DNA from: Minisyncoccota bacterium
GTDB lineage: Bacteria; Patescibacteriota; Minisyncoccia; Phycocordibacterales; JABAAK01
Direction: 5' to 3'
Assembly (NCBI GenBank): GCA_965204115.1
Contig: OZ241963.1
Span: 187,475 to 231,292, forward strand
DNA length: 43,818 nt
In this document: piece by piece, positions 3,572 through 13,973 of the stretch
How the letters are laid out: each line of letters begins with the position of its first letter
Position numbering within the stretch: position 1 is the stretch's first letter
Notes under the pieces: model-generated
What the model was told of the DNA's origin: nothing
Database searches by the model: none
The model's input: only the letters and a program-made list of their open reading frames with translations
Translations under genes and position numbers: made by a program

Positions 3572-3603
3572 TGTGCTATTATAGTAATAGGGCTTCGTGC
3601 CCG
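3572..3603 (+). repeat. 32-nt direct repeat copy 1 (TATTAT box plus 5' hairpin GGGC-TTCGT-GCCC)
   Basis: TGTGCTATTATAGTAATAGGGCTTCGTGCCCG is 27/32 identical to 3679-3710. Confidence 0.8.
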
Positions 3604-3660
3604 CAAGTTTGCCGTTAGGCACCGCTCCCCCCTGTACAACAGGGGGGAGAAGACATTTTA
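3589..3660 (+). ncRNA. candidate small RNA 1 (about 70 nt)
   Basis: Would start about 7 nt after the TATTAT box with hairpin GGGCTTCGTGCCC. Ends in the 10-bp hairpin CTCCCCCCTG/CAGGGGGGAG (3625-3649) followed by a weak T run. Confidence 0.3.
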
Positions 3661-3678
3661 GAGACATTTGTTCTTTTT

Positions 3679-3820: not shown

Positions 3821-5857
3821 TCACTCATCAAGCCCCTCCAAATACCGAATCTCGTCCCGAACGAGAGCGGCAGTTTCAAAATCCAGCTCGGCGACAGCGT
3901 CTGCCATACGGCGCTCTTTTTCACGGATGGTTTTCTTCGGTGCTTTACGGTACTGCTCAATATCAAACTCCGCCAAAGTGGCAACCGTTTTTACCCGCCG
4001 CTCCTCCAGCTCTTCCGTGATGTCTTTAATGTTCTTTACAATCGTTTTCGGGGTGATGTTATGTTCCTTGTTGTGGGCGAGCTGCAGTTCCCTGCGCCGC
4101 TTCGTCTCCTCCATCGCCCGCTCCAATGAGCCCGTTGTCTTGTCGGCATAGAGGATGACCCGCCCGTCAACATTGCGGGCAGCACGGCCGATCGTCTGAA
4201 TGAGCGAGGTCTCCGACCGCAGAAACCCCTCCTTATCAGCATCTAAAATTGCCACCAAAGTAACCTCCGGCAAATCAAGCCCCTCCCGCAAAAGGTTCAC
4301 CCCGACCAGCACATCAAACGCCCCCTTGCGAAACTGCGTCAGCAGCTCAATCCGCTCAATTGTTTTCACCTCACTGTGTAAGTACTCCGCGCGCACCCCC
4401 GCGTCGGCTAAGTATTCCGCCAATTCTTCCGCTGTCTTTTTTGTCAGCGTGGTCACCAGCGCCCGCCCGCCCTTCGCGATGTCTTTCTGCGCCTCAGCGA
4501 TAAAATCTTTCACCTGTCCCGGGTAGTCATCGGTGCCGGTTACCGGATGCACCGCCACCTCCGGGTCCACCAAGCCCGTCGGACGAATAATCTGCTCCAC
4601 AATATGCCCCTTGCTGTGTTCCCGCTCGTACGCATCCGGCGTCGCAGAGGTGTAGACAACCGGACCAACCCGTTCAGCAAACTCTTCAAAAGTGAGCGGG
4701 CGGTTGTCCCGCGCCGAAGGCAGCCGAAAGCCGTGCTGCACCAGCGTGTCCTTCCGTGAGCGGTCTCCCGCGTACATCCCGCCGATTTGCGGCACCGTCA
4801 CATGCGACTCGTCAATCACCGTCAGAAAATCGGCATTACCATCAGCATCCTTAGGAAAGTATGAAAGGAGCGTGTGCGGCGCCTCCCCGGCAGCCCGCCG
4901 ATCAAAATGCCGCGAGTAGTTTTCAATGCCGTTGCAGTACCCGATCTCTTTAATCAGTGCCAAATCCTGTAGCGTGCGCCGCCGCAGCCGCTCATACTCC
5001 AGCACCTTCCCCTCCTTGTCCAGCTCCGCCAGCCGCTCCTGCAGCTCCTGCTCGATAGATTCAATCGCCGCCTCCTGCGCCTCCTTATCAGAGACAAAGT
5101 GCTTTGCCGGGAACAAAAAAAACGCGTCAACCGACGCGTCTTCTATCGCGCGGGTCAGCGCGTTAATGCGCGTGATGCCGCTAATGCTTGATCGATCAAA
5201 CGCAATGCGATAGATCGCCTCCTCGTTCACCGGCATAATCTCAACCGCATCCGCGATCACCCGCACCTTCCCGGACTGCAGCTCCCCCGTCGTCCGCTCA
5301 AAGTAGAGTGCTATCGCCTTCCGCACCAACTCCTCCCGCGTCAGCCCCATACCCTGCTCAATACGCAGATGCACCTTCTCATATTCCTCCGGGCTTCCCA
5401 AACCATAGATGCACGACACCGACGCAACCACCACCACATCACTTCGCGTCAGCAACGCCTGTGTCGCCGCATGCCGCAAGCGGTCAATCTCCTGATTGAC
5501 CAGTGCCTCCTTGGCGATGTAGGTGTCCGACCCCGGGACATACGCCTCCGGCTGGTAGTAGTCGTAGTAGGAGACAAAGTAGTGCACCGGACTGTTCGGA
5601 AAAAATTCTTTGTACTCCTGCGCCAGCTGTGCCGCGAGCGTTTTGTTGTGGGCGATAACCAGCGTCGGCTTATTCCACTGCGCGATGACATTCGCCGCGG
5701 TGAAGGTCTTCCCCGAGCCCGTCACCCCCAGCAGGGTTTGGTGCCGCGCATCATTCTCCAAGCCGCCAACAAGCGCGTCTATCGCCTGCGGCTGATCGCC
5801 GGCCGGCGTTTTGTCGCTCGCGAGGACAAACTTATTTCTGGACCTCATACAGCTCAA
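3821..5857 (-). CDS. uvrB: excinuclease ABC subunit B
   Basis: 678 aa with GVTGSGKTFT Walker A, helicase motifs, and a C-terminal UVR domain (ELDFETAALVRDEIRYL). Confidence 0.95.
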   Translation of the reverse strand: MSCMRSRNKFVLASDKTPAGDQPQAIDALVGGLENDARHQTLLGVTGSGKTFTAANVIAQWNKPTLVIAHNKTLAAQLAQEYKEFFPNSPVHYFVSYYDYYQPEAYVPGSDTYIAKEALVNQEIDRLRHAATQALLTRSDVVVVASVSCIYGLGSPEEYEKVHLRIEQGMGLTREELVRKAIALYFERTTGELQSGKVRVIADAVEIMPVNEEAIYRIAFDRSSISGITRINALTRAIEDASVDAFFLFPAKHFVSDKEAQEAAIESIEQELQERLAELDKEGKVLEYERLRRRTLQDLALIKEIGYCNGIENYSRHFDRRAAGEAPHTLLSYFPKDADGNADFLTVIDESHVTVPQIGGMYAGDRSRKDTLVQHGFRLPSARDNRPLTFEEFAERVGPVVYTSATPDAYEREHSKGHIVEQIIRPTGLVDPEVAVHPVTGTDDYPGQVKDFIAEAQKDIAKGGRALVTTLTKKTAEELAEYLADAGVRAEYLHSEVKTIERIELLTQFRKGAFDVLVGVNLLREGLDLPEVTLVAILDADKEGFLRSETSLIQTIGRAARNVDGRVILYADKTTGSLERAMEETKRRRELQLAHNKEHNITPKTIVKNIKDITEELEERRVKTVATLAEFDIEQYRKAPKKTIREKERRMADAVAELDFETAALVRDEIRYLEGLDE

Positions 5858-6371
5858 TCAAGAACCGTAGCGTTGTGTTCGGCGGAATACTGCCCGCCTG
5901 CTGATCGCCATACCCCATCTCCGGCTGAATGATAACCAATCGCTTCCCGCCGACTTGCATGCCCGTCACTCCCATATCAAAGCCCGGGATCACCTGCCCA
6001 CTGTCCAGCACAAAAGTAAACGCAGTACCACGCTCGGTATTCTGATCAAAAATAACCTCTTCACCCGTGTCCGGATCAATGCGCGTACCGATATAGCCCA
6101 CACTCACCGTGTTTCCCGACTCCGCAGTTTCCCCTTCACCAACCTGCAAGTCAAGAATAGTCACCGGATCAGAAAAAGCCGCAGCACCGGGTTCGGTAAA
6201 GTCGCCCTGTCCGGACAACGCTGAGTTTCCCGCCGTGTTGCCGCCCGAGAAACCGGTACGGAACATACTAAACGGAAAGATCTGTGAGAACAGCTGACCG
6301 CCGAATATAAACGGTACGAAGATTATTAATGCTAGCCCAATGGCGATGTAGGTCTGTATATTTTTTTCCAT
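5832..6371 (-). CDS. FKBP-type peptidyl-prolyl cis-trans isomerase, membrane anchored
   Basis: N-terminal TM helix. FKBP core GQVIPGFDMGVTGMQVGGKRLVIIQPEMGYG...PPNTTLRFLIELYEV. Confidence 0.85.
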   Translation of the reverse strand: MEKNIQTYIAIGLALIIFVPFIFGGQLFSQIFPFSMFRTGFSGGNTAGNSALSGQGDFTEPGAAAFSDPVTILDLQVGEGETAESGNTVSVGYIGTRIDPDTGEEVIFDQNTERGTAFTFVLDSGQVIPGFDMGVTGMQVGGKRLVIIQPEMGYGDQQAGSIPPNTTLRFLIELYEVQK

Positions 6372-6471
6372 ACAAAAATACTATACCACATTATTTTTTT
6401 GTCAAGCAAGATATCTAACATATGCTATCCTACCTATGTAGAAAATGTAGAGAAACAAAAAAACGAAAAAC

Positions 6472-6546
6472 GGCCCTATCGTCTAGCGGCTAGGACGCTG
6501 CCCTCTCACGGCAGAAACCGGGGTTCGATTCCCCGTAGGGTCACCA
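6472..6546 (+). tRNA. tRNA-Glu (anticodon CTC), CCA encoded
   Basis: Manual cloverleaf: acceptor GGCCCTA/TAGGGTC, anticodon arm CTGCC-CTCTCAC-GGCAG, T arm CGGGG-TTCGATT-CCCCG, 3' ACCA. Confidence 0.9.
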
Positions 6547-6983
6547 AGGTTTAAAGGCGGAGTCTGTGAGGACAGTGGGTTTTCCTTTGCGCCGTCGTCA
6601 CCATGGCATTGCTTTGTCAAGTTTCCACATCTTTGATGCTGTAATTGCGTATACGACGATAGTGCCATTATTTTTTTCGCCATAATGAATCTGCGCATCG
6701 TAAGATGTGCGGTGCTTAAGAAGTACTTTTTATTCGTTAAATATTTTCTTATGAATATATTACTAACAAATTTGAAGTGTTCCATTTGGGAGGTTAAACT
6801 TTTAAGCTGATGATCTGGCAAGGAAGTGCGGCTGATAGTCTTGGGCATAACAATCAATTTATTCACAGACTTATCACAGTGTGCAAGAGTGGCTTGACTG
6901 TCGATCAAGTCTCTACGGAAATACACCGATCATGGTGAACTTGAAGTAGTGCAACACCGCTTCCAAAGTGAATATCTAATGGC

Positions 6984-7009: not shown

Positions 7010-7432
7010 GTTTGTATCGTCCTCTCCTGTTGGTTTGCTATTCCTCGTACTGTTACTCTACTGCGAGAGGGCAGGCATTCTCCGCTCACGCAATCTGGTG
7101 AAGTTTGTGTAAACGGCAGATTTCCTTATGATGTTACTCTATAATTGCCACATCATTTGACAATTGAGACCGTATAAAGATAATTAGAAAAATCTTAAAT
7201 ATATTTATAGCATAAAAATTTTTAATTTATATAAAAAAATCTTATTTTACAGTATATTTTATAATAAAAAATTATAAGTCAAAAAATATGCTAATCTGTA
7301 AATAAAGTATAAATTTATATTTTGTGTAAATTAATTAGTTTTTGTCTTTATTTTACAATTTTTAATAAAATATAGGAAATGATATAAAAAATAATTATTT
7401 TTTTTTGGTAAAGTTTTTTACATATGATGATG

Positions 7433-7460
7433 TTGACAAAATACATTCCTCATGTATACT
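7433..7460 (+). promoter_or_regulatory. sigma70-like promoter TTGACA-N16-TATACT at the head of the 4-gene operon
   Basis: TTGACA is at 7433-7438 and TATACT at 7455-7460. The -10 box overlaps the tracked ATG at 7452, so either the promoter call or that start is wrong. Confidence 0.35.
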
Positions 7461-7880
7461 GTTTTTATAACCCGAGCAAATACAATTAACGATCTGTTCG
7501 CTGAGCCGAAGGAACTGCTTGATTCTATCGTGCCTGCTCTAAAAAGCAAGGTCTCCATTGACCAAAAAACGCTTGAGCCCGCCTTATCGTCGGCTGATGT
7601 GATAAAAGAGAAAACTCGCATTAAAGCACTCTGGTATCTGCTGGCGAAGAAGGCGGTTGAGTTATCGCCTGAAGCGGCAAAGGGTGATCAAATTGGAATG
7701 TCAGCAATAAAACTTGCTGATGCTCTTCGTTTAACGAAAGGACAGAGTGATGGGGCCGTGAATACACTCAAACGAGAGGGGGTAATTACGGTTTTTACTA
7801 AGAGGGGGAAAGAGGTCTTGTATCATATACCAGATCATATGGTAGAAACTGCAATCAAAATCGTGCAAGAAAAAAAGTAG
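7452..7880 (+). CDS. hypothetical small protein with C-terminal winged-helix-like domain (paralog A)
   Basis: 142 aa. The C-terminus MSAIKLADALRLTKGQSDGAVNTLKREGVITVFTKRGKEVLYHIP reads as helix-turn-helix plus a beta-hairpin wing. First gene of a tightly packed co-directional operon. Confidence 0.6.
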   Translation: MYTVFITRANTINDLFAEPKELLDSIVPALKSKVSIDQKTLEPALSSADVIKEKTRIKALWYLLAKKAVELSPEAAKGDQIGMSAIKLADALRLTKGQSDGAVNTLKREGVITVFTKRGKEVLYHIPDHMVETAIKIVQEKK

Positions 7881-7889
7881 GTAATTATT

Positions 7890-8306
7890 ATGGAAGAATA
7901 TATAACAAAAAAAGAATTTACAGCCCTTGAAAAGAGAGTAAAAAAAATAGAGAGGGCGTTTGGTGCTGATGCAAACACGGGCACTAAGAAAGTAAGGCGT
8001 GTGGAATCATCGTCTGAGTTTTTAAGAAAAAAAGATCTGAAAACTGCTATGGACGCTGTTATTTGTATTGTGTATTTTATTGAAAACGGAAGTGATGAGG
8101 ATGTTGGGGTTACATCTAGTGATATAGAGCAGGGGCTTAGAAAAGCGCGACAAATTGTTCCTAAAAATATATCAGACTGCCTTGCCAAGTGTGCGAAAAA
8201 AGGTCTTATCCAAGAGAGTGGTGACGATAAGAGGGAGGGTAAAAAAGTTTGGGTACTGACGAATACTGGGATTGAATATGTCGAAAACCTTGATAAAGAA
8301 GAATAA
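7890..8306 (+). CDS. hypothetical small protein with C-terminal winged-helix-like domain (paralog B)
   Basis: 138 aa, 9 nt after gene A. N-terminal charged helix and Ser/Lys-rich linker, then AVICIVYFIENGSDEDVGVTSSDIEQGL...KKGLIQESGDDKREGKKVWVLTNTG. Confidence 0.65.
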   Translation: MEEYITKKEFTALEKRVKKIERAFGADANTGTKKVRRVESSSEFLRKKDLKTAMDAVICIVYFIENGSDEDVGVTSSDIEQGLRKARQIVPKNISDCLAKCAKKGLIQESGDDKREGKKVWVLTNTGIEYVENLDKEE

Positions 8307-8312
8307 ATACTT

Positions 8313-8780
8313 ATGAATGACAAACAGTTTAAAATCATAGTTGACTTATTGAAGGAGATACGCGATGCCCTGAAAAAGTCTGAGTCTGCTGCTACTTCTG
8401 TAAAAAATAGTTCAAAGAAGAGGAACGCCTTCCCAGCAGTGCCATGGGAAACATACATAAAAAATAAACAACCGAAAAATGATTATGAGGTCGTTGCAGT
8501 TGTGGTTGATTATCTTACAAAAACAGGAAAAGAGGTTACGATAGAAAGTATTATTGAGTTTATTCGTGAAAGTTCGGTTGCGTTCTCAAATGTAAGAGAT
8601 CCCGAGAAGGTTGTGAACAATACGAAAAATAATAAACACTATGGTTATATTGAATTTGTCGATAAGAAAAAAAGAAAGCATTATCGACTAAGCATTAAAG
8701 GGTCTCAGTTTATAAATATATTGCAAGAAAAAAAATTATCTCCCGCTAATGAAATCTATGATGGCAAAAAGAAAAAGTAA
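8313..8780 (+). CDS. hypothetical small protein with C-terminal winged-helix-like domain (paralog C)
   Basis: 155 aa, 6 nt after gene B, with the same layout as B: VVAVVVDYLTKTGKEVTIESIIEFI...GYIEFVDKKKRKHYRLSIKG. Confidence 0.65.
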   Translation: MNDKQFKIIVDLLKEIRDALKKSESAATSVKNSSKKRNAFPAVPWETYIKNKQPKNDYEVVAVVVDYLTKTGKEVTIESIIEFIRESSVAFSNVRDPEKVVNNTKNNKHYGYIEFVDKKKRKHYRLSIKGSQFINILQEKKLSPANEIYDGKKKK

Positions 8781-9507
8781 TAAGAGCATTTTTTCAGCAA
8801 ACATTCCACAAGGCTTGGAGCAGGCACTAATTGCTGAGTATAAAAAAGTTATTGTCAGATATAAGAGCGGTGATTTTGAGCATCACGAAACATCTGTGGG
8901 AAAATTTTGTGAAGTGGTGTTACGCATTCTTGAATACAATCTAAGAGAAACTTTTACCCCCATTGGTGATCGCATCTCCAACACTGGAAAAATCATCAAT
9001 GAGACCATAAACAGTAAGAGTATTGATGGGTCAGTAAGAAAGAGACTTGCGCCACTGATTAAAATATTGCTTGGATTTCGTAACGAAAGAGATGCTGCGC
9101 ATGTTGGTGGAGTTGACTTGGAATCCATTGACACCAATTTTACTTTCTATGCAACTAGGTGGATATATGCTGAGTTAGTAAGAATATATGGCGACATGGC
9201 AGTGAAAGAAATACAAAAAGAGGTAGACACGGCCGCGGAGATTGCTTTTCCTGATTTGCTCAAAGTTGGTAACAAGACGGTCATTGTTAATCCAAACTTG
9301 ACGTCGGGAAAGGAAATATTACTGTCTCTCAGAGATGGGGAGAAATCTTTTGAAGAGTTATTTGAAATGAACAAAGAGCAGAATAAAGCGCGCTTTAAAA
9401 GAAAATTGAGTGATATGGAAAAACAAAAGCTTATTTATCTTAAAGAAAACCAGAGGTACCACTTGCTGCCCGCAGGAAGGTCAGAAAATGTGAAGTTCAT
9501 TAAATAG
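8749..9507 (+). CDS. HEPN-like (Rx4-6H) protein with C-terminal winged-helix-like domain
   Basis: 252 aa, overlapping gene C by up to 32 nt. All-helical N-terminal region contains LLGFRNERDAAHVGG, an RN...AH signature like HEPN families. The C-terminus is KSFEELFEMNKEQNKARFKRKLSDMEKQKLIYLKENQRYHLLPAG. Confidence 0.55.
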   Translation: MKSMMAKRKSNKSIFSANIPQGLEQALIAEYKKVIVRYKSGDFEHHETSVGKFCEVVLRILEYNLRETFTPIGDRISNTGKIINETINSKSIDGSVRKRLAPLIKILLGFRNERDAAHVGGVDLESIDTNFTFYATRWIYAELVRIYGDMAVKEIQKEVDTAAEIAFPDLLKVGNKTVIVNPNLTSGKEILLSLRDGEKSFEELFEMNKEQNKARFKRKLSDMEKQKLIYLKENQRYHLLPAGRSENVKFIK

Positions 9508-10509: not shown

Positions 10510-10560
10510 ACGGTTTTACATCTTTCAAGAATACCCTAATATCTTTCATTGCTATTAGTA

Positions 10561-10566
10561 TATACT
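10561..10566 (+). promoter_or_regulatory. candidate -10 box (TTAGTATATACT) for the RT leader transcript
   Basis: Same TATA(TA)CT motif as other promoters here. It lies about 470 nt upstream of the RT ATG. Confidence 0.35.
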
Positions 10567-10572
10567 GCAAAA

Positions 10573-11025
10573 CAGGTGCTACGCATGCCATGCACGACTC
10601 TTAAAATTTTCAATAGAATTCACTCGCAAACAGTCGCACCGGAAAAACCACTTGCATTTTAAAAGGAGCCATGTGATAATGCAGGCGTGGGTGTGTGCAT
10701 TCACGCATACACCCCGCCGTCAGTGGTTGCTATTTAACCCTCGGGCGCTTAGTGGTCACAGCTCTGTCGGATACAACAGGAGTTACACTCCCGCCAGTAG
10801 ACGACATCTACGAGTACATCTCGGTGATGGTTAATACAATGTGCTCCGCAAGAGCACATACCACTCGCTGGTGTTATGCTATAATGCGTATGATGAAAAG
10901 ACTGCTACGGAATATCATAGTGCCGTGGCAATTACACCAGCGAAGCTGGGTGAGTGGATTACAATGAGTACTGCTCAGCAAACGGTTCGACTCCGTTTCC
11001 ACCCTCAAACTCACTTTTTATTATT
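10573..11025 (+). ncRNA. candidate structured ncRNA/leader upstream of the reverse transcriptase
   Basis: GC-rich non-coding block inside an AT-rich island. Hairpins: 10684-10718 (GGCG-GGGTGT-TGC / GCA-ACACCC-CGCC), 10839-10859 (ATGTGCTC-CGCAA-GAGCACAT), CACCAGC-GAA-GCTGG(G)TG, and a tRNA-like T arm at 10981-10997. The closing helix GTGAGT/ACTCAC is followed by TTTTTATTATT. Confidence 0.45.
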
Positions 11026-11035
11026 CCAAATCAGC

Positions 11036-12244
11036 ATGACTAGTATTGACCTAACGCAAATCATAACAGAACAAGAATTAGAAAATGCGCGGAAGAAGCT
11101 CTTTGGGCATGAAGCACGAAGAAAAAAACCGCAAAAAAATATACACCACCCGCCGGCAGGAAGAGGTGTGCGCAATAAATTTCACGAAGAAAATATTAAT
11201 ACAGGCGAAATATACCAACAACGATGTGCTGACTTCAAATTCAAGCCCTACACAGGAACCGCTATTGAGAAGCCGAGTGGGGGCTATAGACCATTGCTTG
11301 TACCACATAACGAGGACAGAATCATACTCAAGGCAATATTCCCACATATCAGAGGCATCATTCTGCGAAAACACTCACACGAAGCTGAAATGCTCGGCGT
11401 CGGCAAAAAGTTTTCCAGAAAAAACATCGGCAATATAGTAAGCGATATTGCATGGATGACCTGCCAGGACGGATACCGATACATTATGAAAATAGACTTT
11501 TCCAGTTTTTTCTCAACAATAGATAGAAAACATCTACTGAGTATTCTGCGTGAAAAATACTTCAACCCTAACGATCTGATAGAGCTAATCCTGCTAAACC
11601 TTATTAAGGTATCTCTTTATAACGAAATACAAGAAGAAGGAGGCCCAGGGTCGTTTTTCTTAGGCGACATAGCGAGCATGAACCTGAAAGAAGTGGGTAT
11701 TCCACAAGGGCTTCCGTATTCCCCATTATTGGCAAACATCTACACACTTGGAGTTGACCAAGCCATCAACAGTATAGACGGTTGTAGAGTAATCCGGTAT
11801 ATTGATGATATGATAATCGTCTCAAAGACGAAAAAGTGTCAACACGACGCTTTTAACTTACTACGACAGATGGCTAAGAGAAAAGGGCTAAGGTTAAACG
11901 AAGAGAAAACAAAAACTTATAACATCAACAGCTCGAAGCACAGTCATATTAATTTTCTGGGTATCAATATAAGGAGTGACGGCACAAAAACTCTCCCGAC
12001 AGAAAAAAAGGGAAAAATCAGAGGGTGGCTACAAAAAATTAATGACAGCTCTCACCATCTTGCAAAATACACCAACCACCCACACTACAAAGAATCAGAG
12101 CATTATAAATCTTGCAGTGTGCAGGACATTGTTAAAAAGAAGATGCGGAATTCAATTGACGGAGTCAGAAGGCATTACAAATCAAACTGTATACAGGGGG
12201 TTGATGAATTCATTGAAAGAGTGGAAAAACAATACTCGCTCTGA
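11036..12244 (+). CDS. reverse transcriptase (group-II-intron-like / defence-associated 'unknown group' type), no fused effector domain
   Basis: RT motifs are IEKPSGGYRPLLVPHNEDRIILKAI (1-2), YIMKIDFSSFFSTID (3), GIPQGLPYSPLLANIY (4), VIRYIDDMIIVS (5, YxDD), GLRLNEEKTK (6) and INFLGINI (7). The start is placed at the ATG at 11036; the tracked GTG at 10841 lies inside a hairpin of the leader. Confidence 0.9.
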   Translation: MTSIDLTQIITEQELENARKKLFGHEARRKKPQKNIHHPPAGRGVRNKFHEENINTGEIYQQRCADFKFKPYTGTAIEKPSGGYRPLLVPHNEDRIILKAIFPHIRGIILRKHSHEAEMLGVGKKFSRKNIGNIVSDIAWMTCQDGYRYIMKIDFSSFFSTIDRKHLLSILREKYFNPNDLIELILLNLIKVSLYNEIQEEGGPGSFFLGDIASMNLKEVGIPQGLPYSPLLANIYTLGVDQAINSIDGCRVIRYIDDMIIVSKTKKCQHDAFNLLRQMAKRKGLRLNEEKTKTYNINSSKHSHINFLGINIRSDGTKTLPTEKKGKIRGWLQKINDSSHHLAKYTNHPHYKESEHYKSCSVQDIVKKKMRNSIDGVRRHYKSNCIQGVDEFIERVEKQYSL

Positions 12245-12270
12245 TTGATTTTTCGCACCATAATGATCTA

Positions 12271-12337
12271 TCACCCATTCACAAGGTAGTAGTACTTCCC
12301 TCTTTTTTCGATGATGCCTTCGGTGAGGGGGGCTGTG
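12271..12337 (-). pseudogene. displaced duplicate of the 3' end (last 22 codons plus stop) of the MutY-like gene (att-like repeat)
   Basis: 63/67 nt identical to 13107-13173. Translates on the minus strand to ..APLTEGIIEKRGKYYYLVNG*, versus ..ALLTEGIIEKRGKYYYLANG* in the intact gene. Confidence 0.85.
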
Positions 12338-12452: not shown

Positions 12453-13019
12453 ATGTCTAAAAAATTGTCGAAATTGCAGGTTTTTCAGGTTATTGGGGCC
12501 ATATTGATTGTGGCTCTTTGTGTTTTTTTGGTACTTTGCTTTGTTCAGCGAGATAAAATAGAAGATCTTGAGGTAGAAAACTCTGCTCTCGAAGGTCAGG
12601 TAGTGACGATTCAAGCTGAGCACGGTGAGACCCAAGAGGCCCTTAAAAATGCCGAAGAGCAGGTGGGTGCGAAAAACGTAGAAATCGTAAAATTAGAGGT
12701 GGTAATACAAGAGGCGGAAGAGAATTTTAACGCTTTGCAGGTTGACCATGGTCAGCTTGAAAAAAAGGTGAAAAATCTTCAATCCCTTAGAAGTGTTGAT
12801 AGGTCTAAAATTGTAAAGCTGACAGCAGAAAACAAAGATCTGAGGTCAGCTCTGTCTATCAGGAAAGTAGCTTTAGACGACTCCCTTAACGCTATTAAAG
12901 AGGTTCGGCAATCTGTTAATGAGGGCACGCAGGCAAACGAGAGGATGCTTGACGCCGTCGCCCAGAGCAGAGCGCGGATCGCCGAGATGAATGAGGTCAT
13001 TAATCGTATAAATAAATGA
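12453..13019 (+). CDS. membrane-anchored coiled-coil protein
   Basis: 188 aa with SD AGGAGG 7 nt upstream. N-terminal TM helix (VFQVIGAILIVALCVFLVLCFV) is followed by a heptad-like E/K/Q-rich helix. Confidence 0.65.
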   Translation: MSKKLSKLQVFQVIGAILIVALCVFLVLCFVQRDKIEDLEVENSALEGQVVTIQAEHGETQEALKNAEEQVGAKNVEIVKLEVVIQEAEENFNALQVDHGQLEKKVKNLQSLRSVDRSKIVKLTAENKDLRSALSIRKVALDDSLNAIKEVRQSVNEGTQANERMLDAVAQSRARIAEMNEVINRINK

Positions 13020-13082: not shown

Positions 13083-13106
13083 ATTTTTTATGCATAACAA
13101 CCTATA

Positions 13107-13973
13107 TCACCCGTTCGCCAGGTAGTAGTACTTCCCTCTTTTTTCGATGATGCCTTCGGTGAGGAGGGCTGTGAGGGCTTTGTTGATGTGTTGTGTCGGT
13201 AATGCTTGGAGTTGTTTTCTGGAGGTGCCTTTTTGTGCGCTGATGAAGTGGCGGAGGAGCGCGCCGCGGGCTTGGCGGATGGAGCCGGTGAAGGGTGCTT
13301 GCTTGGTGTAGTGTTTGCTGCGAGGGTTTGTGCGCACTCCCTGCGCCTTGAGGTGGGTGCCGTAATCCATCATTGCGGAATAAAAGGTGCGGGGGGTGGT
13401 TTTGCGGTTGAGGGCGTTTTGTAATAGTTGCTCAACGAAGCGGTTGATTGTTTTGTCGCTCACCGCTTTCTTTTTTCGTGCGCAGTGATGGAGTACGACG
13501 GTGCGGATGTTTGTTTCGACGATGATGACCGGTTTGTCGTAGGCGAATGCCAGCACGGCACCGGCGGTGTAGGGGCCAATGCCGGGCAGGGTGCGCAGTG
13601 CTTCTTCAGTTGTCGGCACGATGCTGTTGTGCGAGGCGGTGATGGCTTTTGCGGTGTTGTGCAGTGCGATCGCCCGGCGGTTGTAGCCGAGGCCGCTCCA
13701 GAGTGCAAGCACTTCTTTTCGCGGGGCATTGGCGAGCTCGGTGATGTTCGGAAATGTTTTTATAAATGCGTTGTACTTCGGCACGACGCGATCAACTTGT
13801 GTTTGTTGCAGCATACATTCTGAAACTAAAATGCGGTATGGGTCGGTCGTCTCCCGCCAGGGGAATGTTCGCTGTTCGTTTTTGTAGTGTGTCAGTATGC
13901 GAGAAACAACATCGCTGATTTTTTCTTTTGACGATGGCGTGGGCATAGAGGGGTATAGAAAAACCCTCGGCAA
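13107..13973 (-). CDS. HhH-GPD DNA glycosylase (MutY/EndoIII-like N-terminal domain) with C-terminal winged-helix-like tail
   Basis: ECMLQQTQVDRVVPKYNAF...LWSGLGYNRRA...LPGIGPYTAGAV match the MutY/Nth core. The usual C-x6-C-x2-C-x5-C Fe-S loop is not visible. The C-terminus is QLQALPTQHINKALTALLTEGIIEKRGKYYYL. Confidence 0.8.
   Translation of the reverse strand: MPRVFLYPSMPTPSSKEKISDVVSRILTHYKNEQRTFPWRETTDPYRILVSECMLQQTQVDRVVPKYNAFIKTFPNITELANAPRKEVLALWSGLGYNRRAIALHNTAKAITASHNSIVPTTEEALRTLPGIGPYTAGAVLAFAYDKPVIIVETNIRTVVLHHCARKKKAVSDKTINRFVEQLLQNALNRKTTPRTFYSAMMDYGTHLKAQGVRTNPRSKHYTKQAPFTGSIRQARGALLRHFISAQKGTSRKQLQALPTQHINKALTALLTEGIIEKRGKYYYLANG

Follow-up and report, generated by a model that had tools for sequence, protein, structure and literature searches.

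What does a lone reverse transcriptase (RT) gene do in the genome of a Minisyncoccota bacterium, and why is it preceded by a long, hairpin-rich leader? The question is raised by a locus in a 43,818-nucleotide (nt) stretch of contig OZ241963.1, referred to here as the window. An earlier note, made from the letters of the window, had read the locus as a lone RT, not linked to retrons, diversity-generating retroelements, Abi proteins, Cas genes or introns, together with an upstream non-coding RNA (ncRNA) of no known class. The comparative data described below back this reading. The locus is most likely an undescribed two-part RT-ncRNA module, and the module is probably defensive. The ncRNA ends in a domain that appears to imitate a part of a tRNA, and the RT is of group-II-intron-like type.

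The two parts of the module lie on the same strand. The protein part is as follows.

11036-12244, + strand: RT gene, 402 amino acids (aa), with an N-terminal extension, RT motifs 1-7 and an X/thumb domain
11798-11809, + strand: YIDD catalytic box of the RT

The protein covers Pfam RVT_1 from end to end (1-205 of 205, E 8e-28) and its AlphaFold (AF2) model has a mean predicted local confidence (pLDDT) of 84.5. An RT of about 403 aa with a YIDD box, starting at ATG 11036, had been proposed before, and the comparison agrees with it: N-terminal alignment shows the same start in the three closest homologues, which are 89, 47 and 44% identical to the window RT. No obvious Shine-Dalgarno sequence precedes this ATG. 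The RT frame stays open for about 195 nt 5′ of the ATG (10841-11035), across the tRNA-like domain of the leader, and because of this the gene caller predicted a product of 467 aa from GTG 10841 (P0001). GTG 10841 was rejected as the RT start, since the homologues and the N-terminal alignment point to ATG 11036.

Relatives of the RT were collected with a profile built from the four close proteins, which was scored against a set of 1.84 billion representatives. Two clusters scored about 750 bits and the next dropped to 175 bits; the family is rare, with 17 clusters at E <= 1e-30. All relatives are 400-420 aa long and fall into three clades with 30-40% mutual identity.

Clade A: the window RT, P0002, P0003 and P0004
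Clade B: the P0021 and P0010 types
Clade C: the P0005, P0006 and P0046 types

The genomes that carry them belong mostly to the candidate phyla radiation (CPR), namely Parcubacteria, Saccharibacteria, Zambryskibacteria and Paceibacterota, the others being one Bacteroidetes and one Thermodesulfobacteriota metagenome-assembled genome. No relatives were matched in viral contigs. Clade-A-specific scans of GTDB genomes and JGI metagenomes gave no matches, and loci were recovered in the genome and metagenome scans only with a broader alignment, A4.

The leader was compared in the four clade-A loci, which are the window and the loci L001, L003 and L004. In all four, a gap of at least about 450 nt stands before the RT gene, and the leaders align. 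The promoter and the RNA were located as follows.

10652-10680, + strand: sigma-70-type promoter, with -35 TTGCAT at 10652-10657, a 17-nt spacer and -10 GATAAT at 10675-10680
About 10687-11008, + strand: structured ncRNA of about 320 nt, made up of hairpin P1, a P2 domain with P3-P5, a junction, P6, P7 and the tRNA-like domain

This -35/-10 pair has aligned counterparts in L001 (TTGCAT-17-GACAAT) and L003 (TTGTGT-17-TACAAT), and in clades B and C a TTGnnn-17-TATAAT pair lies immediately 5′ of the first hairpin, P1. The promoter scan missed the window promoter, whose -35 element fits only 3/6 positions. As this promoter is kept in all clades, the RNA is predicted to start near 10687 and would thus be about 320 nt long and not 450. 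The TATACT box at 10561-10566, earlier taken for the promoter, is not conserved in L003 or L004. The description of the leader as GC-rich and about 450 nt long is half right: the ncRNA is richer in GC (50.3% for 10687-11008) than the RT gene (40.3%) and the upstream island genes (35-36%), the whole window having 47%, while the length has to be shortened. The ncRNA is probably co-transcribed with the RT gene.

The segment 5′ of the ncRNA promoter (10513-10650), which includes the TATACT box, is about 85% conserved with L001 and is not conserved with L003 or L004. An indel of 18 nt and a divergent patch, at about 10567-10590, break its alignment with L001.

That the leader acts as RNA is suggested by its folding and by its pattern of substitution. 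Compared with shuffled sequences, the + strand of the window leader folds with z = -4.4 and -4.0 (-4.0 for the ncRNA at 10687-11008), whereas the - strand reaches only z = -1.7; values of -4.0 to -4.4 hold for two divergent members of the family. Between the window and its 89% relative L001, leader substitutions are spread evenly over the codon positions of the longest open frame (22/24/24), and so are those between L003 and L004 (31/29/34). A protein-coding leader was ruled out by these even substitutions and by open frames no longer than those in dinucleotide shuffles, in agreement with the earlier view that the leader holds no convincing open reading frame (ORF). In a search against Rfam 15 the leader had no match at the gathering threshold or at E <= 10, as expected of an ncRNA of no known class. 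Transfer-messenger RNA (tmRNA), RNase P RNA and other known RNAs were ruled out by negative ARAGORN and Rfam results.

The layout of the RNA was derived from RNAalifold, single-sequence folds and direct comparison, and it is the same in all four clade-A sequences. The elements 5′ of the tRNA-like domain are listed below.

10689-10698 with 10705-10714, + strand: P1 hairpin, GGGTGTGTGC / GCATACACCC, the first element after the transcription start
10716-10831, + strand: P2 domain, closing helix GCCGTCA (10716-10722) with TGATGGT (10825-10831)
10723-10731 with 10751-10759, + strand: P3, inside the P2 domain
10765-10769 with 10802-10806, + strand: P4, inside the P2 domain
10811-10814 with 10820-10823, + strand: P5, inside the P2 domain
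10832-10838, + strand: junction between P2 and P6, UUAAUACAA and adjoining bases, conserved and single-stranded
10839-10846 with 10852-10859, + strand: P6 hairpin, ATGTGCTC / GAGCACAT
10866-10874 with 10934-10942, + strand: P7 long hairpin, CGCTGGTGT with ACACCAGCG, enclosing a variable insert

In P1, P2, P6 and P7 the sequence varies among the four RNAs and the pairing is kept. P1 recurs as GGGTGCAA/TTGCGCCC in L003 and as GGGT.CCGAT/ATCG.ACCC in L004, and a hairpin stands right 3′ of the -10 box in all clades. The closing helix of P2 covaries (ATCGCCA/TGGCGAT in L001, ATCGCAA/TTGCGAT in L003 and GCCGTT/AGCGGC in L004). The P2 domain is exactly 116 nt in all four RNAs, and it was recovered both by RNAalifold and by the centroid fold of L003. 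P6 becomes CAAGTA/TACTTG in L003 and CAAGTGG/CCACTTG in L004, and P7 becomes CGCTGGC/GCCAGCG in L001, CCAGCGATGG/CCATCGTTGG in L003 and CTGGTGA/TCACCGG in L004. The stems earlier drawn by eye at 10684-10718 (P1) and 10839-10859 (P6) are therefore supported by their covariation. The local hairpin CACCAGC-GAA-GCTGGGTG is not kept; ACACCAGCG pairs over a long range with CGCTGGTGT to form P7. The junction between P2 and P6 is conserved as a TTAAWACAA-like sequence in all four RNAs and is, speculatively, a candidate protein-binding or template segment. The counterpart of P7 in clades B and C is a hairpin, H, directly adjacent to the tRNA-like domain. The window RNA and clade C also have in common an AUACC/UAUCC motif 5′ of P7 and a linker of 3-5 nt to the acceptor stem. 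The shared P7/H hairpin and AUACC/UAUCC motif make the whole RNA one family with a variable middle.

The most conserved part of the region is at the 3′ end of the RNA.

10948-11008, + strand: tRNA-like domain with an acceptor-type stem, a D-loop analogue, a T-arm and an N-C-W-A tail, without an anticodon arm
10948-10952 (GGGTG) with 11000-11004 (CACCC), + strand: acceptor-type stem that closes the domain
10956-10957, + strand: conserved GG, forming the D-loop analogue with a small extra hairpin
10980-10985 (AAACGG) with 10993-10998 (CCGTTT), + strand: T-stem
10986-10992, + strand: T-loop TTCGACT
11005-11008, + strand: tail T-C-A-A after the acceptor stem, of the form N-C-W-A

The T-arm-like stem-loop already noticed in the leader is confirmed at 10980-10998. 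No other element of the region is as well conserved, and it is the key feature of a complete tRNA-like domain shared by a wider RT superfamily. In 23 loci, drawn from the three RT clades, a single copy of the domain is present; it has the orientation of the RT gene and lies 5-40 nt from the start codon, on its 5′ side. The closing G-C pair of the T-loop, its T, T, C, A and T and the GG of the D-loop analogue are invariant or nearly so. In the N-C-W-A tail, which is in the same register as tRNA N-C-C-A, the A is nearly invariant. The acceptor-type stem is GGGCG/CGCCC in L001 and GAGTG/CACTC in L003 and L004. A GTGAGT/ACTCAC closing helix had been proposed here; it is lost in the 89%-identical L001, and the real helix is GGGTG/CACCC. 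The U-run described before the RT ATG is likewise absent after the domain in L003 and L004.

Covariation in the domain was tested on an alignment of 20 sequences (A5). In this alignment 92.3% of cells pair, compared with 64% after shuffling and 33-50% with a slid partner, and changes on both sides are seen in 11/13 pairs. The covariation score was 0.834 versus 0.274 and was reached in 0/500 shuffles. A covariance model, R1, matches the window at 10943-11012 (41.5 bits, E 2e-8). Each RT locus yields exactly one match to R1, oriented like the RT gene and immediately 5′ of the start codon, and among the matched loci are two outside the training set of the model, L018 (36.9 bits) and L026 (33.8 bits); real tRNAs score at most 16 bits with it. 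Covariation across homologous loci is thus seen in P1, P2, P6, P7 and the tRNA-like domain. Judged by its sequence and pairing, the domain appears to mimic the acceptor/T-arm/elbow 'top half' of a tRNA. The absence of a Shine-Dalgarno sequence and the mere 8-28 nt between the folded domain and the AUG fit a translation that depends on processing or on RT binding.

The domain was not called by ARAGORN or by the Rfam tRNA and tmRNA models, and was not found in the more distant RT loci L025 and L034-L037. A tRNA-derived attachment-site remnant of the tRNA-Glu island was rejected as its origin: no tRNA of the window shares its sequence, and the acceptor-type stem covaries with its own 5′ partner. 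In L018 (2439-2496) and L026 (2437-2493) the T-loop reads UCCGAUU instead of UUCGAUU (U54 to C) and is still matched by R1. A promoter-like match, TTTCCA-17-TATTAT at 10996-11024, overlaps the 3′ part of the domain; it would yield a leaderless RT mRNA and is not conserved in L001, L003 or L004.

The RT had been likened to the 'unknown group' (UG) RTs of the defence-associated (DRT) type. The searches place it nearer to group-II-intron-like RTs. In NCBIfam it is matched best by TIGR04416 (group II intron RT/maturase); the match reaches 116 bits, the cutoff being 300, and spans RT and X (model positions 46-331 of 353). Among solved structures the best sequence match is the group-II-like (G2L) enzyme G2L4 (E 2.4e-16). 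Foldseek also ranked G2L4 best, with a template-modelling (TM) score of 0.69, followed by the RT of the group IIC intron GsI-IIC (TM 0.66) and, lower, by DRT9 (TM 0.60) and DRT2 (TM 0.55). The maturase-type GWxNYY motif is kept in the sister clades and is degenerate in clade A. PADLOC, in which models of G2L RTs are absent, gave UG17 as the top profile for the window RT, with 108 bits over profile positions 39-295 of 429, which is the RT core only; the generic RT model scored 97 bits. UG17 also came first for P0003 and for all eight clade B and C relatives tested, and for P0004 it was second by about 2 bits, these matches having E-values of 1e-29 to 1e-36 overall. Since UG17 is the former G2L3 group (PMC8632793), the PADLOC, NCBIfam and structure results agree. 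The RT is of G2L type in that it is a group-II-type enzyme with the N-terminal extension (NTE/RT0) and X/thumb and without intron RNA. With about 21% identity to G2L4 it falls outside that clade. The G2L4-like proteins (P0132, P0182 and others) reach only about 1e-17 to 1e-18 with the clade-A profile, where they rank beyond about the 100th place, compared with 1e-30 to 1e-46 for clades B and C. These comparisons point to a free-standing group-II-like lineage, outside the G2L4 clade proper and outside UG17, with G2L4 and the group IIC RTs as its closest kin.

The RT gene sits in a low-GC island. To one side are housekeeping genes (FtsW, UvrB, FKBP) with the tRNA-Glu gene listed below, and to the other an HhH-GPD glycosylase and RNase HII. 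A DpnI-like methyl-directed restriction enzyme lies directly upstream of the leader, in divergent orientation. Restriction, defence or integration genes adjoin the RT in several other loci.

6472-6546 of the window: tRNA-Glu
L001: DpnII restriction-modification and an AAA ATPase
L004: methyltransferases
L010: EcoRI methylase, T5orf172 and GmrSD
L013: type I R subunit
L015: R.HinP1I
L022: Shedu SduA
L026: Mrr-like enzyme
L008, L010, L014 and L017: large serine recombinase (Pfam-confirmed)
L016: 423-aa convergent ORF in the recombinase position, known by position only
L012: tyrosine integrase

The setting is that of defence islands on small integrative elements. In clade B the serine recombinase is convergent with the RT gene and within a few nt of it, and in L014 and L017 (clade C) it shares the strand of the RT and follows it after about 80 nt; the two enzymes could cooperate. 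The genes 3′ of the RT differ in all four clade-A loci and have no mutual similarity, no SLATT domain was found in the RT neighbours of these loci, and no partner gene is fused to the RT or conserved beside it in any of the four. The view that the RT has no fused or adjacent effector is in line with these observations. In the window, the region after the RT is occupied by a cassette.

12453-13019: 188-aa membrane/coiled-coil ORF, after a 208-nt gap from the RT, the sole ORF of a 767-nt cassette
12269-12337 and 13105-13173: 69-nt direct repeat, 94% identical, flanking the cassette

The repeats correspond to the last 21 codons and the stop of the HhH-GPD glycosylase gene (13107-13973, - strand). 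The 188-aa ORF, lying between them, therefore looks like a separately inserted cassette. It was rejected as a SLATT-like effector of the UG17-B style, having no SLATT match, being absent from the three homologous loci and being flanked by repeats. The DNA of the window and that of L001 cease to be similar exactly at the first repeat, which argues against the 3′ flank of the RT being a conserved RNA element of the kind of intron domains V/VI. A conserved RNA 3′ of the RT was rejected more generally, the flank being a glycosylase fragment in L001 and showing no similarity in L003 and L004.

How might such a module work? DRT2 (UG2) and DRT9 (UG28) would provide the best functional analogy. Like the module in the window, they consist of a lone RT of 400-500 aa without effector, have a structured ncRNA upstream and occur in defence islands. 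The window RT is remote from both, with 58 bits for NF041746 Drt2 against a cutoff of 390 and 76 bits with Drt9 in PADLOC, and the ncRNA of neither system is known to have a tRNA-like 3′ domain. Other tRNA mimics lie inside longer transcripts and lack a functional anticodon arm. In the MALAT1/MEN-beta mascRNA, RNase P and RNase Z make the ends of the long non-coding RNA at such a mimic, and the tRNA-like domain of tmRNA has a stemless D-loop analogue. These are eukaryotic nuclear transcripts or the RNA of trans-translation, and neither is known to be linked to an RT. A full-text literature search for tRNA-like RNAs that accompany bacterial RTs found none described; as a feature of RT-ncRNA modules the mimic is new.

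We propose that a G2L-type RT and its own ncRNA of about 320 nt form a two-part module in which the tRNA mimic is processed or bound and the ncRNA is copied into antiviral cDNA, and we put the chances of this proposal at about even. RNA-protein binding, processing, cDNA synthesis and defence, all of which we infer, would be connected as follows. The mimic may serve as a handle for the RT, as a processing site or as an initiation site. It would be bound by the RT, or cut by RNase P on its 5′ side and by RNase Z or exonucleases after N-C-W-A, or both. Cutting would split the transcript into a stable ncRNA, whose 3′ end is tRNA-like, and an RT mRNA almost without leader. The RT could then use the ncRNA as scaffold and template, initiate at or near the tRNA-like end and make cDNA. 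Either the cDNA or the RT-RNA complex itself may be antiviral, as in the effector-less DRT2 and DRT9.

A bolder version of this proposal, which we regard as doubtful, is that the domain is a bacterial counterpart of the 'genomic tag', such that the RT would start cDNA at the host-processed, tRNA-shaped 3′ end of its partner ncRNA. Genomic tags have so far been seen only in fungal retroplasmids and RNA viruses. The cDNA would serve immunity or, in the recombinase-linked clades, mobility. Group II RTs initiate at RNA 3′ ends. Elsewhere, initiation proceeds by 2′-OH branching in retrons and by protein priming in DRT9, DRT10 and AbiK, and the tag, if real, would add a third means of setting the initiation site to those of prokaryotic RT-ncRNA systems. 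RT activity would in addition be coupled to the tRNA-processing state of the cell. The Mauriceville/Varkud retroplasmids of Neurospora are the nearest parallel: a group II/non-LTR-type RT (non-LTR, without long terminal repeats) is tied to an acceptor/T-arm tRNA-like structure, and the position of this structure on the DNA map, shortly 5′ of the RT frame, is that seen in the window. The retroplasmid RT binds the acceptor-stem part of the 3′ tRNA-like structure and initiates at the 3′ end (PMC8363836). The resemblance to the window is structural only. The retroplasmid is a fungal mitochondrial plasmid whose CCA-ended tRNA-like structure tags the full-length RT transcript, whereas the element described here is chromosomal and bacterial, has an N-C-W-A end and tags the upstream ncRNA and not the RT mRNA.

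Several observations weigh against the proposal that the RT copies its ncRNA into antiviral cDNA. The tail of the domain is N-C-W-A and not CCA. The window ncRNA has no U-rich template loop of the DRT9 type. Stop-free frames of the DRT2 style extend over 282 nt on the sense strand of the window, with p 0.07-0.2 against dinucleotide shuffles, and long stop-free frames are not kept in L004 or on the antisense strand of the window. A-B-A′ patterns at the P2/P6 junction are trivial (2-3 nt) and not significant. Covariation in P3-P5 is thin, clade A consisting of four members in two pairs. No terminal Tyr or Ser for protein priming is conserved in the clade-A RTs, whose C-termini (EKQYSL, EKQYSL, KRDLL and KRNFLLAR) share no hydroxyl residue. 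The closest characterised relative, G2L4, is a DNA-repair RT without a known RNA partner. A recombinase often adjoins the RT in clades B and C and could point to mobility, and the defence role is read solely from the neighbouring genes.

The main rival is a purely regulatory leader, and we consider it unlikely, the mobility, intron and DRT10 readings being less likely. The leader would be a cis-acting 5′ untranslated region whose tRNA mimic is a translational operator or processing signal, and the substrates of the RT would lie elsewhere; the RT could be a G2L4-like DNA-repair enzyme, or could act on cellular or phage tRNAs and repress its own mRNA through the mimic. Self-repression of this kind is known for threonyl-tRNA synthetase, which acts through a tRNA look-alike, and for the group II intron protein, which acts at domain IVa. 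The position of the domain 8-28 nt from an AUG without Shine-Dalgarno sequence fits an operator, and no template feature was found. G2L4 of Pseudomonas aeruginosa (PDB 9D4S, 9D5X), the closest solved structure, is like the window RT free-standing, about 400 aa long, without intron RNA and endowed with YIDD; it acts in double-strand-break repair and, to our knowledge, has no known partner RNA. What speaks for an RNA with a function of its own is that some 260 nt of extra covarying structure (P1-P7) and a separate promoter exceed the needs of an operator. The window family, moreover, always comes with the ncRNA and in defence or mobile islands, not in repair operons, and the G2L4-like proteins are distant from it, as their rank in the profile search shows. 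A mobile retroelement or its derivative, either a chromosomal relative of the tRNA-tagged retroplasmids or a DIRS-like pair of RT and recombinase copied through RNA, is a good deal less probable. The tRNA-like tag beside the RT recalls the Mauriceville plasmid (PMC8363836), the L003 module is flanked by a 32-nt direct repeat, direct repeats of neighbour gene ends lie beside the RT in the window, L001 and L004, and a large serine recombinase directly follows the RT in clade B and in some of clade C (L014, L017). The repeats, however, differ in kind from locus to locus, and those of the window flank the neighbouring cassette and not the RT. There is one copy per genome fragment with no multi-copy spread seen, and the family is rare and without matches in viral contigs. 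The tRNA-like domain is also 5′ of the RT ORF, and an RT starting there would therefore copy the ncRNA and not its own gene.

Two further readings, both very improbable, assign the locus to known RT classes. In one it is a degenerate or unusual group II intron and the leader represents ribozyme domains I-IV. A long structured RNA 5′ of the ORF and a best curated family of group II RTs/maturases, matched through domain X, would suit it. The 116 bits are nevertheless far below the 300-bit TIGR04416 cutoff, searches with Rfam models of D1-D4 and of DV/DVI yielded nothing even when E <= 10 was allowed, a separate promoter of the RNA stands immediately 5′ of P1, no host gene is interrupted, and the tRNA-like domain is foreign to intron architecture. 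As had been stated earlier, no group II domain V/VI follows the stop codon, the 3′ flank in the window being a glycosylase gene fragment that is not conserved in L003 and L004. In the other, still harder to credit and already largely refuted, the module is a divergent DRT10 (UG17), a telomerase-like tandem-repeat system. DRT10 shares with the window RT a group-II-like lineage, the combination of RT and ncRNA, a Y(V/I)DD box and the nearest PADLOC profile, UG17 leading there for the window RT and nearly all the relatives tested. In UG17-B the RT comes first, with a gap of about 200 bp before the next gene (bioRxiv 10.64898/2026.04.29.721553), which compares with the 208 nt before the membrane protein in the window. 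The UG17 match is confined to the RT core and exceeds that of the generic RT model by little (108 vs 97 bits). The window module has neither the SLATT-5 effector, its 188-aa ORF being an inserted cassette, nor a conserved C-terminal priming Ser/Tyr. The DRT10 RNA, compared by description, is about 140 nt long and lies upstream of SLATT (PMC12632851), whereas the window ncRNA has over double that length, is structurally unrelated, precedes the RT gene and has a tRNA-like end. Retrons were excluded: NF038233 gave 80 bits against a cutoff of 235, retron RT chains matched only at E 1e-3 to 1e-4, and no Rfam RNA was matched. An msr-msd arrangement was also rejected, as the RNA is not closed by pairing of its two ends, P1 being a local hairpin and the 3′ end the tRNA-like domain.

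The proposed RT-ncRNA module would add a group-II-like lineage to the RT-ncRNA systems. Retrons, DRT2, DRT9 and DRT10 each showed an unexpected route of making DNA, and several of them are now tools. The hosts are mostly CPR/Patescibacteria, whose defence biology is almost unexplored. The complete tRNA elbow and acceptor mimic in the RNA partner provides a directly testable handle, and it is relevant to the choice of start sites by RTs and to the long-standing view of tRNA-like ends as replication tags. The RT, being compact (402 aa) and without partner protein, is attractive for heterologous testing.

Repeats were also seen around the RT in the other clade-A loci. L001 has a glycosylase fragment after the RT as well, and no glycosylase gene is present in about 6 kb downstream. 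In L003 the 32-nt direct repeat (97% identical, 5563-5594 and 7282-7313) brackets the whole ncRNA and RT module; it consists of an intrinsic terminator hairpin with its T-run and may be the footprint of a cassette insertion at a terminator. In L004 a 26-nt repeat (7220-7245 and 7429-7454), which begins 14 nt after the RT stop, corresponds to the 3′ end of a - strand tRNA gene (7437-7524). It is the third case in which the 3′ flank of the RT duplicates the end of a convergent neighbour gene.

Two other observations concern the islands. In the window, four tandem + strand ORFs (142, 138, 155 and 252 aa) occupy 7452-9507, between tRNA-Glu and the DpnI-like gene. Searches with Pfam and PADLOC matched none of them, a weak MarR-like hint aside, and they may be another uncharacterised cargo of the island. 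In L008, a tRNA-Glu nearly identical to that of the window (3596-3667) lies 333 nt upstream of the RT, the recombinase is at 5259-6539, and a match to LOOT RNA (RF03000) is found beyond it at 6703-6822.

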